From Candidatus Bathyarchaeota archaeon (GTDB taxonomy: Archaea > Thermoproteota > Bathyarchaeia > Bathyarchaeales > Bathyarchaeaceae), in NCBI GenBank assembly GCA_963697165.1, contig CAVOMX010000014.1, positions 32,001-96,000 on the forward strand: 64,000 nucleotides of DNA, written 5' to 3'. The notes below the pieces were generated by a model. The model was given only the letters and a program-made list of their open reading frames with translations, was not told the DNA's origin and made no database searches. A program made the position numbers and the translations under genes. This document shows, piece after piece, positions 26,254 to 58,053 of the stretch (position 1 is its first letter; each line of letters opens with the position of its first letter).

Positions 26254-26751
26254 ATGGAACAATTGAACAGAAGAACAACAGTAACAAAACCAACACCCAT
26301 ATTCACAACTAACTGGTACCTATACAAAACACACTTACACCCAATCTCCGCAAAACCACAAGAACAAAAAACTGGAACAAAAACCAACAGTTACAGGACA
26401 AAAAGAAAAAATAATGAAGATCAAAAAAACAACATTCATCAAAAAACAACTAATTTTGAAGAACTTTTGCTAAAAGCAATAGATGAAGGACTCTCTGTAA
26501 TCGGAGAATCAGCAAAAAAAATAGTCTACATCTATTTAGAAAAAAATTTCAAAATGAACAGACTAGACATACCACACAGAATTGACGAATTCACCAGAGC
26601 TATCGAAAGTATCTTTGGAAACGGAGCGAAAATACTTGAGATACAAATAATGAAAAGTCTCTTCAACAAAGTGGGTCACACAGTCAAACAGTATTCGGGA
26701 CAAAAGAACCTAACATTTATCGAATACATAGCAGCGATCAAATTGGAATAA
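26254..26751 (+). CDS. Small helical protein, DUF3227/NitrOD5-like domain (start uncertain)
   Basis: C-terminal LLKAIDEGLSVIGESAKKIVYIYLEKNF...FTRAIESIFGNGAKILE pattern. The N-terminus is low-complexity and A-rich. Confidence 0.55.
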   Translation: MEQLNRRTTVTKPTPIFTTNWYLYKTHLHPISAKPQEQKTGTKTNSYRTKRKNNEDQKNNIHQKTTNFEELLLKAIDEGLSVIGESAKKIVYIYLEKNFKMNRLDIPHRIDEFTRAIESIFGNGAKILEIQIMKSLFNKVGHTVKQYSGQKNLTFIEYIAAIKLE

Positions 26752-26883
26752 TAGAACCGCCCAAACACCAATAAGCAACAGTCAAACTAAAATCGCAAAA
26801 AAACGGGCAAAAACAACAACTACACGCAGATACCAGAGAAAAACAAAAACCTCAAAAGCAAATACATATTGCATTTGCAATAA

Positions 26884-26895
26884 CTTTATATTATA
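26884..26895 (+). promoter_or_regulatory. TATA-box-like element upstream of the candidate ncRNA
   Basis: CTTTATATTATA about 25-30 nt upstream of a GC-rich structured segment. Confidence 0.4.
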
Positions 26896-26918
26896 TGATG
26901 CTTTTTGACGCTCTTGAT

Positions 26919-27032
26919 GGATGGTGAGGGGACAACGAGAAAATACCCCCTGTTCTCCATTCGCCAAGAGACATACCCTCTCCTTGTGCGATCGACGGTG
27001 CATATGCGCGCATGCGCCATGTCCCCCCATCC
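26919..27032 (+). ncRNA. Candidate structured ncRNA (four-way junction, 114 nt)
   Basis: GC-rich island in an AT-rich intergenic region. A 13-bp closing stem with a UGA bulge encloses three internal hairpins; upstream TATA-like element. Confidence 0.55.
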
Positions 27033-27090
27033 TTAGTTCTGGCATAAAACTACAGATAAAAAAGAGAATTAATGATAGAATGAACGACCG

Positions 27091-27390
27091 TTAGATTATT
27101 ACGGTTCTACGGATTTTGAAGCCATCAAACACTCCAGTGTATTCTTCCCATTTTATATCTATCTTCAAAACTCGGGCGCCTGAAGGTCCAAGTCCACAAA
27201 AATCAATCAGCTGCTCCACATCTCCTTTCTCCCCCTCAAAGATTGCTTCCACTCTACCATCAGATGCGTTTCGAACCCAACCTGCAACGCTTCTTTTCAG
27301 AGCCTCACAGCGAGTTTCCACCCTAAAGAATACTCCTTGAACCATACCGCTTACAAAGATATGGGCTCTAACATTCATGTTTCTCATCAA
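27091..27390 (-). CDS. acyP: Acylphosphatase
   Basis: VSGMVQGVFFR, GWVRNASDGRVEA, GPSGARV. Confidence 0.93.
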   Translation of the reverse strand: MMRNMNVRAHIFVSGMVQGVFFRVETRCEALKRSVAGWVRNASDGRVEAIFEGEKGDVEQLIDFCGLGPSGARVLKIDIKWEEYTGVFDGFKIRRTVII

Positions 27391-27452: not shown

Positions 27453-27791
27453 TTAAGATGTTTTTTTGAAGTTTATAGATTGCCCTGATAGATCTACCTC
27501 GTAAATTTGATTCACATCAAAGTCTATACCAAACCTTTCATATTCACTCTCAGTTAGAAACAAAATCATTTTCGGGATAGCAAACTGAGTTGCTTGGGTA
27601 GCAAGCATTGGGAGTTGCTGCTGTAGACTTTTCATAACCTCCTGAACCATTTGTGCCTCTTCTGTTGCAGGTCTAACCGCAAACCGGGGAATAACCCGAT
27701 CTTCAATAAGCTCGATCCGTTTACCAAGGTTACCTTCAGGATCTTTGATAGATTCAATCTTCTGAACCCTGACACGTGTCACAATAACCAC
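27453..27791 (-). CDS. Arcadin-1-like protein
   Basis: DPEG...KRIELIEDR and PKMILFLTESEYE patterns resemble Arcadin-1, recalled from memory and not searched. Confidence 0.55.
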   Translation of the reverse strand: MVIVTRVRVQKIESIKDPEGNLGKRIELIEDRVIPRFAVRPATEEAQMVQEVMKSLQQQLPMLATQATQFAIPKMILFLTESEYERFGIDFDVNQIYEVDLSGQSINFKKTS

Positions 27792-34408: not shown

Positions 34409-34485
34409 GCCTCGGTGGCTCAGCCCGGTAGAGCGGCAGCCTCGTAAGCTGTTGGTCGCGGGATCAAATCCCGCCCGAGGCTCCA
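34409..34485 (+). tRNA. tRNA-Thr(CGT), CCA encoded, no intron
   Basis: Acceptor GCCTCGG/CCGAGGC-T-CCA, anticodon arm GCAGC-CTCGTAA-GCTGT, T arm GCGGG-ATCAAAT-CCCGC. Confidence 0.96.
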
Positions 34486-38142: not shown

Positions 38143-38219
38143 GCCTCGGTGGCTCAGCCCGGTAGAGCGGCAGCCTTGTAAGCTGTTGGTCGCGGGATCA
38201 AATCCCGCCCGAGGCTCCA
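38143..38219 (+). tRNA. tRNA-Thr(TGT), CCA encoded, no intron
   Basis: Identical to 34409-34485 except the wobble base (loop CTTGTAA). Confidence 0.96.
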
Positions 38220-57453: not shown

Positions 57454-58053
57454 ATGATACGTGTCTGCTATCAAAAAAGAAAGAACATTTGGTTTGGTGC
57501 AGCGGTTCAGAATGAACAGGTTGTTGCCGCTGACTTTTCCCTTGAAGAACCAGATTTGAGGCAACTAATAAGAAAGCTTCCACAGGATACTCCGTTTCAT
57601 TTTATTGAAGAACCTGATCAGTTTCTAGCAGATGTTCTGAGCGCTTTGGAGACGGCTTTCAACGGAAAGGGCAACAAAGTCTATGGGTTCAAAATAGACA
57701 TGACTCATCTTTCCAGTTACACACGAAAGGTGCTTAACTGCACGCGTCTGGTTCCTGTTGGATACGTGACAACATATGGTAACTTGGGCAAGGTTGCTGG
57801 TGGAATTGCAAGATCGGTGGGGCGCGTTGAGGCATCAAATCCGTTTCCTTTGTTGATTCCCTGCCATAGGGTTGTGTGTTCTGATTTGAGTTTAGGCGGC
57901 TACGGATACGGAGAGCAGACAAAGAGGGAAATTCTTCAACGGGAAGAAAGAGGCTACGAAGAGTCAAAAAGACTAAAAGTGGATGACAGGGAACTGGTTC
58001 TGTTTCCAGCAAAATGGGTTAAACAAAAACATGGAGAGCTTTTAAGAGGCTAA
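57454..58053 (+). CDS. ogt: O6-methylguanine-DNA methyltransferase
   Basis: VPVGYVTTYG, ARSVG, NPFPLLIPCHRVV. Confidence 0.93.
   Translation: MIRVCYQKRKNIWFGAAVQNEQVVAADFSLEEPDLRQLIRKLPQDTPFHFIEEPDQFLADVLSALETAFNGKGNKVYGFKIDMTHLSSYTRKVLNCTRLVPVGYVTTYGNLGKVAGGIARSVGRVEASNPFPLLIPCHRVVCSDLSLGGYGYGEQTKREILQREERGYEESKRLKVDDRELVLFPAKWVKQKHGELLRG

Follow-up and report, generated by a model that had tools for sequence, protein, structure and literature searches.

A conserved, structured RNA of Bathyarchaeia defines a new family of non-coding RNA genes

The window analyzed here, a 64,000-nucleotide stretch of DNA from a Candidatus Bathyarchaeota archaeon, carries on its plus strand an element with complementary ends: a purine-rich strand made up of GGATGG (26919–26924), TGA (26925–26927) and GGGGACA (26928–26934), and a pyrimidine-rich strand made up of TGTCCCC (27020–27026) and CCATCC (27027–27032). 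In RNA letters these give a 13-bp closing helix (P1), GGAUGG[UGA]GGGGACA / UGUCCCC-CCAUCC, that encloses three hairpins. P2 (26937–26957) pairs GAGAA (26937–26941) with TTCTC (26953–26957) around an 11-nt loop, AATACCCCCTG (AAUACCCCCUG in RNA letters); P3 (26961–26991) has an interrupted 11-bp stem and the 7-nt loop CATACCC (26972–26978); P4 (26997–27018) joins GGTGCAT (26997–27003) to ATGCGCC (27012–27018) around the loop ATGCGCGC. The arcadin-1 gene (PF18653) lies downstream, at 27453–27791 on the minus strand.

The original prediction had described this closing stem and the three hairpins from the letters, and both direct reading and an unconstrained minimum free energy (MFE) fold of 26915–27036 on the plus strand (ViennaRNA) agree with it; the MFE structure is the same four-way junction, at −44.5 kcal/mol, with the P2 and P3 loops unpaired. 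The segment had also been called a GC-rich island read from the plus strand, and here too the prediction holds. The G+C content of the element is 0.55, as compared with 0.414 for the genome, and the plus-strand fold has a z-score of −4.53, with 0 of 200 dinucleotide shuffles equally stable, versus −1.95 and 10 of 200 for the reverse strand.

Ahead of the element, at 26877–26891 on the plus strand, a BRE-like GCAATAAC is followed by the TATA box TTTATAT (26885–26891), 28–34 nt before P1; the pair is a putative promoter, judged from its motif. The TATA-like box of the original prediction is well conserved: 20 of 21 orthologues have TTTATAT and the remaining one TTTATAA, and CAATAAnTTTATAT is conserved among all 21. 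Sibling copies and relatives from other genera are each preceded, equally far upstream, by a AAAnnTTTAnAT box, and a AAAnnTTTAAAT box accompanies every real sibling copy. With the TATA-to-start spacing customary in archaea, which we take to apply here, transcription would begin within 26908–26918 (plus strand), the position of a predicted single-stranded 5′ leader, GACGCTCTTGAT, that is conserved within the genus and reads GGYTTTGTT in other genera. Beyond P1, the alignment places a 3′ tail at 27033–27045 (plus strand) as a possible terminator, weak here (TTAGTTCT) and CCTTTT in the orthologues. A 6-2-6 palindrome, ATTGCATTTGCAAT (26866–26879), abuts the BRE and TATA box in this genome and is kept only partly in orthologues; it could be a regulator site or a product of chance.

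Signs of expression were sought in Logan contigs from RNA libraries, which are unstranded and in which uncovered parts are uninformative. Parts of the stretch are present in three estuary metatranscriptome runs, and two studies supply RNA-library contigs that overlap the RNA. One of these, from run X1, spans 26948–27027 and comes from a relative (7 differences, contig depth 18.8); the other, from run X2, spans 26928–27158 with 2 differences and extends past the element into the neighboring gene region. Next to no sequence words of the stretch occur in runs X4–X7. Viewed across 20 kb, contig cover is sparse and patchy (15 of 30 bins in X1, 19 of 30 in X2) and falls on coding and non-coding DNA alike, and DNA carry-over or read-through is therefore possible. 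A transcript had been expected by the original prediction; because the contigs that cover the element are unstranded, we regard them as a weak hint of its transcription.

BLAST searches covered 61 related genomes, among them 24 other members of the genus and 36 members of other genera. Strong matches, promoter included (E ≤ 7e-26, 78–93% identity), were found in 20 of the 24 genus members; in the 36 genomes of other genera the best E value was no better than 0.046. The locus is syntenic: in 20 of 21 genus loci acylphosphatase and arcadin-1 genes (Pfam) follow the RNA and point toward it, a 165-aa open reading frame lies upstream in 16 of 21, and the flanking proteins share 51–88% amino-acid identity within the genus. 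The loop core UACCC of P3 is invariant in the 21 orthologues and the P2 loop is nearly so within the genus; the GGATGGT of the 5′ strand of P1 is kept family-wide. Arcadin-1 is missing from the same four genus genomes as the RNA (G002, G003, G022, and G024). The gene is near-universal family-wide (35 of 41 genomes, as against 13 of 41 for the RNA) and adjoins the RNA only inside the genus; we have for these reasons dropped a functional link between the two, and the joint absence probably means that a whole block is missing in one sublineage.

A covariance model built from the 21 orthologues (R1) finds weaker full-length matches, two of them near-identical in the window's own genome and others in four genomes of the genus. 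With a second model, R2, which adds the siblings to the R1 set, full-length siblings or relatives are detected in 13 of 41 genomes of the family, spread over 9 of 20 genera (8 beyond the window's own). A class-wide sample of 151 genomes yields matches in five, four of the genus, the fifth match being a weak one. When a core pattern was run over the GTDB species representatives it matched 82 stretches, of which 80 were fetched and 19 pass R2; the titles of the 19 read Bathyarchaeota, Bathyarchaeia, Ca. Bathyarchaeum or Thermoproteota, and none of the pattern matches in bacteria, Thorarchaeota, Methanomassiliicoccaceae or Sysuiplasmataceae passes. Of 80 loci fetched from JGI metagenome contigs, 35 score within E ≤ 1e-5; relatives in GTDB and metagenome contigs come under the titles Bathyarchaeota or Bathyarchaeia. 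In all, more than 60 member loci were gathered. Viral contigs gave 0 matches to the core pattern, and a phage or viral origin is rejected on that ground. Judged by these searches, and as far as they extend, the RNA family is restricted to one family of Bathyarchaeia, in which its distribution is patchy and some genomes hold sibling copies.

Several of these copies deserve comment. The two siblings in the window's own genome (G000) lie outside the window, at C12:184700–184830 (minus strand) and C14:123178–123308 (plus strand), within some 3 kb of almost identical sequence present on both contigs, where they share flanks encoding an AHSA1-domain protein, an 82-aa coiled-coil ORF and an ABC ATPase; either the duplication is genuine or the assembly has doubled the stretch. 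A genus-type copy scoring 157 bits occurs in a genome of another family (G131), on the roughly 3-kb contig C165 (L035/L117), and is likely a binning error rather than a transfer. Two weak relatives, L067 1501–1608 (minus strand; G030) and L069 1501–1613 (plus strand; G028), score 18–21 bits and sit directly after uL2-uS19 ribosomal protein genes (by Pfam in L067, by eye in L069); each has its own TATA box, a 3-nt P1 bulge (GAC or UAC), and a P3 without a C-rich loop. One of the weaker R1 matches, on contig C224 of G021 (L058), was dropped as false; it sits in coding DNA. Scores near 20 bits are unreliable, since an antisense match in L005 reaches about that value, and we therefore treat the five weakest relatives (G030, G028, G289, G041, and the second G036 copy; 18–21 bits) as tentative and left them out of alignment A5.

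Covariation was assessed in two alignments, A4 (35 members, one spurious antisense row included) and A5 (29 deliberately diverse members), both fitted to the covariance model, a procedure that favors the model's structure. Changes on both sides of a pair are found at 24 of 34 pairs in A4 and 18 of 34 in A5, and 0 of 500 shuffles reach either figure; when partners are slid by 1–3 columns as a control, the number of two-sided pairs is 3–11, and paired cells, at 91–94% in the real alignments, fall to 43–58%. All 11 pairs of P1 vary, 10 of them in A5 and 9 in A4 with two-sided changes, and P3 has such changes at 4 of 11 pairs in A5 and 9 of 11 in A4. P1, P3, and P4 covary. Within the genus alone the signal is weak because the RNA varies too little there; a genus-only alignment has just one pair in which both sides change, and its observed covariation score is reached by 13 of 500 shuffles. 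Since A4 and A5 were fitted to the model and an independent check was wanted, we also folded the 29 sequences singly. The closing helix forms with at least 10 pairs in 29 of 29 of these MFE structures and P2 in 27 of 29, and six relatives have fold z-scores of −4.91, −2.36, −1.88, −4.92, −3.31, and −4.23. Homology and covariation across Bathyarchaeia, by which the original proposal was to be judged, speak for the structured RNA that it posits.

The family does vary around this common plan. The single-sequence folds carry three hairpins in 17 of the 29 members, two in 10, and one in 2, and the four-way junction of the original prediction, present in the MFE fold of this genome, therefore does not stand as the shape of the family: 10 of 29 diverse members are three-way. 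The register given for P1 likewise exists here and is peculiar to this genome. The UGA bulge is private to it, and most orthologues read GGA-[U]-GGUG-[A]-GGGGAC, with single-base bulges in its place. P4 is a lineage-specific arm, possessed by genus-type members and shorter or absent in relatives. By eye, P4 (26997–27018) contains three GCGC blocks with 4-nt spacing, the first being GUGC in this genome; its loop holds the palindrome GCGCGC, with which alternative hairpins or loop-loop dimerization would be possible, and the alternative P4 hairpin in three orthologues would carry a GCAA tetraloop. The most conserved unpaired parts are the C-rich loops. A core of the YACC(C) or ACC(C) type recurs in P2 and P3 across the family, which extends the loop conservation on which the original prediction laid weight, and some distant relatives lack the C-rich loop of P3. 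The stem of P2, GAGAA/UUCUC, hardly changes: four of its five pairs are identical in 29 of 29 diverse members and the fifth is kept in 28 of 29.

A further contact may exist in the three-way relatives. In L062, L064, L174, L211, L215, and L236 the P3 loop contains CUAC, which complements the GUAG of the junction strand GGAUUGUAGCC, and in L160 and L221 our reading by eye finds CCAC and GUGG, the two having changed jointly. This one covarying event suggests a possible 4-bp loop-junction pseudoknot in the three-way relatives.

The element matches no RNA family that we searched. At gathering score, Rfam 15 finds nothing in the window except two tRNA-Thr genes (34409–34485 and 38143–38219, anticodons CGT and TGT, 3.7 kb apart; ARAGORN finds the same two). 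At E ≤ 10 in 26700–27200 it reports two miRNA models upstream on the minus strand (E 1.6 and 3.6), which are taken as chance, and at E ≤ 5 it finds nothing at the element in the loci of 14 relatives. The original statement that tRNA, 5S, SRP, and C/D patterns are absent is upheld by the silence of both Rfam and ARAGORN at the element, and comparison with the features of each class points the same way. A tRNA would have a cloverleaf with a 7-bp acceptor stem, conserved D and T loops, and a 7-nt anticodon loop with U33; here the closing helix is 13 bp and the loop CAUACCC has A at the U33 position. Identity with 5S rRNA (RF00001), SRP RNA (RF01857), or RNase P RNA (RF00373) is rejected because the real genes are elsewhere in the genome, scoring 74 bits (on another contig), 171.1 bits, and 207.7 bits, respectively; none of the three families matches at the locus, 5S at E ≤ 10. 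The genome also has an ordinary 16S rRNA, and 5S genes were found in three relatives. Box C/D RNAs carry a C box (RUGAUGA), a D box (CUGA), a K-turn, and guides of about 12 nt; this RNA offers only TGATGG (26916–26921), with no conserved 3′ CUGA and no C/D match at E ≤ 10. In box H/ACA RNAs a stem with a pseudouridylation pocket is followed by an ACA box, and a K-turn or K-loop is present; here no ACA is conserved after any stem and P2–P4 contain no internal pocket. A K-turn, the L7Ae site, is a 3-nt bulge followed by tandem sheared G·A pairs; the bases opposite this bulge are C or CC, not GA, and the bulge is unconserved. A bulge-helix-bulge motif has two 3-nt bulges on opposite strands, 4 bp apart; P1 has a single bulge on its 5′ strand, and single-base bulges in most orthologues.

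Coding potential was examined in the same spirit. In this genome ORFs of 40–87 aa overlap the element on both strands, and translation of the 87-aa minus-strand ORF would have counted against the original prediction. One- and two-base indels vary among the orthologues, however, and in each of the six frames the longest stop-free stretch drops to 17–28 aa; because no frame is open in all orthologues, this ORF and the ATG at 26921 were both discarded as conserved coding frames. The 87-aa product has no Pfam match.

Taken together, the conserved promoter motif and sequence, the covarying structure, and the lack of a conserved ORF or Rfam match establish the novel RNA that was originally proposed: the element is a real, conserved, structured non-coding RNA gene of a new family. 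Across 27 loci, no neighboring gene recurs beyond close orthologues, and none is shared outside the genus. Its own putative promoter, the convergent downstream gene, the lack of a shared neighbor, the patchy distribution, and the siblings argue for a free-standing accessory RNA.

What such an RNA might do can be sketched from its form. We picture a stand-alone gene for an RNA of about 115–130 nt, probably transcribed as a discrete molecule from the TATA box, in which a long imperfect closing helix carries three hairpins and the junction would serve to display the two C-rich loops. These loops may be the working parts, binding mRNA rather than protein; their ACC(C) cores would pair with G-rich, Shine-Dalgarno-like sites, and the start of translation would be hindered. 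A trans-acting small RNA of this kind is our leading proposal, and a tentative one, held at somewhat less than even confidence. The host uses Shine-Dalgarno signals: GGTGA occurs 97 times upstream of starts versus 11 times in controls, and the 3′ end of its 16S rRNA is GGAUCACCUCCU. As a lead, the P2 loops of relatives (ACACCC, ACACCU, AUCAUCCUC, and AAUCCUCCU), and in some orthologues the 3′ strand of P1 (CACCUCC), appear to resemble the anti-Shine-Dalgarno sequence.

The search for targets, with which the original prediction proposed to follow up its C-rich loops, gave a single positive sign. GGGGTA, the exact complement of the UACCCC loop, is found in 13 start regions versus 4 in-gene controls, a weak hint of anti-RBS action. 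Loop duplex energies computed against 4579 candidate start regions, however, show no shift from in-gene controls (means for starts versus controls of −6.72 versus −6.87 for the P2 loop and −6.81 versus −6.40 for the P3 loop), and the best target of the P2 loop, an Ogt-like gene at window position 57454 with −22.8 kcal/mol here, is not conserved, the values being −4.0 to −16.0 in the 15 other genomes in which both partners could be compared. Exact complements of at least 11 nt occur at about chance level by a rough, informal expectation, and a listing of 9-mer complements has no standout target. Because these tests are unsupportive, and because the invariant stem and the junction suit the rival explanations about equally, we keep our confidence in base pairing below even and take the alternatives seriously.

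Foremost among these is that the RNA binds protein, as a scaffold, a decoy, or the subunit of a ribonucleoprotein (RNP), with the P2 hairpin, GGAUGGU, and the ACC(C) loops as its contact sites; one or two copies of an RNA-binding protein would then be titrated or carried by it. We consider this only slightly less probable than base pairing. The P2 stem is invariant in sequence across 29 diverse members while P1, P3, and P4 covary, and 5′ GGAUGGU is retained even opposite a mismatched partner strand; to judge from this pattern, both look more like a protein or tertiary contact than mere scaffold. The YACC core shared by the P2 and P3 loops, the conserved multi-helix junction, and the failure of the scans to bring out an mRNA target also speak for a protein partner. 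Against it, no candidate partner was found, no gene recurring beside divergent members. Arcadin-1, a neighbor in the genus only, is much more widespread in the family than the RNA, and L7Ae is unlikely since K-turn features are absent.

The RNA could instead be a self-contained fold, acting in trans as an aptamer or small ribozyme whose ligand or active site is built from the junction and unpaired bases. The three- or four-way junction with its conserved junction and loop bases, and the joint change from CUAC/GUAG to CCAC/GUGG in one lineage of the three-way subfamily, would suit such a fold. We nevertheless think it improbable: the Rfam riboswitch and ribozyme models are silent both at the locus (E ≤ 10) and in the 14 relatives (E ≤ 5), no downstream gene is conserved, the distribution is patchy with sibling copies, and relatives can do without P4 and without the P3 loop. 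The lack of a conserved downstream gene also means that the element is not a cis switch. A broader form of the last two ideas, in which the RNA does not regulate by base pairing and is instead the subunit of an undescribed RNP, or else an aptamer or catalytic fold that stands by itself, and in either case belongs to one family of Bathyarchaeia only, we rate as unlikely, if still worth keeping in mind. The P2 hairpin, GGAUGGU, and the ACC(C) loops would in that case form a specific binding surface, with which the translation machinery itself might be engaged; the ACC(C) loops resemble both the 16S anti-Shine-Dalgarno CACCUCC and the NCCA end of tRNA.

It is very improbable that the element is a cis-regulatory leader or a 3′ element of a neighboring gene. 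One sibling subfamily does precede a MoaA-type radical-SAM gene by about 70 nt, and one RNA-library contig continues from the RNA into the neighboring gene region; yet the gene that follows faces the element both in the window and in 20 of 21 genus loci, each copy is preceded by a TATA box of its own, and the neighbors change from one subfamily to another. The convergent downstream gene, together with the lack of any neighbor shared among 27 loci beyond close orthologues, rules out a riboswitch or leader. The MoaA-type gene (Radical_SAM plus Mob_synth_C) is co-oriented and stands behind a T5 run after L048 1501–1622 (G009), a sibling that has a metagenome twin, L235, with the same placement; a local effect in cis is possible there. 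A small protein gene, whether the 87-aa minus-strand ORF or one starting at the ATG at 26921, has in its favor that ORFs cover the element on both strands in this genome, and we give it hardly any credence in view of the differing indels, the product without a Pfam match, and the conservation of pairing instead. No more credible is a diverged housekeeping RNA (tRNA, 5S, SRP, RNase P, or a C/D or H/ACA guide), as a size near that of 5S, a cloverleaf-like outline, and the faintly C-box-like TGATGG are outweighed by normal 5S, 16S, RNase P, and SRP RNAs elsewhere in the genome, by the ARAGORN and Rfam results, and by the lack of a conserved D box, ACA box, or G·A pairs.

Bathyarchaeia rank among the most abundant archaea of sediments, and to our knowledge almost nothing is known of their RNA regulators. 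A search of the literature for non-coding or small RNAs of Bathyarchaeia or Bathyarchaeota returned nothing relevant, and one for archaeal structured-RNA motifs returned nothing that fits the element. The family described here can enter RNA catalogues and serve in the annotation of metagenome-assembled genomes (MAGs). If the RNA binds a protein, it points to an undescribed RNP.

Three known systems invite comparison. Y RNAs, which are bound by Ro60/Rsr, are about 100 nt long and have a bulged terminal helix, pyrimidine-rich loops, and a U-rich 3′ end. The present RNA recalls them in its size of about 100 nt, its bulged end-to-end helix, its pyrimidine-rich loops, and its U-rich 3′ end; it differs in that no Rfam Y RNA or YrlA model matches at the element, and we reject a Ro RNP because a TROVE gene (PF05731) was found in 0 of 3 genomes searched, a Deinococcus control being positive. 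RsaE/RoxS are bacterial small RNAs with C-rich loops whose motif is UCCC. Like them, the present RNA carries a short C-rich motif twice, each time in an unpaired loop, and has siblings in some genomes, but RsaE/RoxS are bacterial, show no homology to it, carry UCCC where the motif here is ACC(C), and have no counterpart to the invariant stem and junction of the Bathyarchaeia RNA. The closest parallel to the proposed anti-RBS action is offered by the intergenic small RNAs sRNA154 and sRNA41 of Methanosarcina mazei, for which anti-RBS loops are a described mode of action (PMC5867862). All are archaeal and lineage-restricted, with stem-loops whose exposed, pyrimidine-rich loops would be able to cover ribosome-binding sites; independent transcription, a trait of the M. 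mazei pair, is predicted here from the promoter motif. The RNAs are unrelated in sequence and by Rfam, the phyla differ, and the loops of the Bathyarchaeia RNA are mounted on a three- or four-way junction that is conserved and closed by a helix of 13 bp. If these loops do bind ribosome-binding sites, anti-RBS control by small RNAs would extend from methanogens to Thermoproteota.
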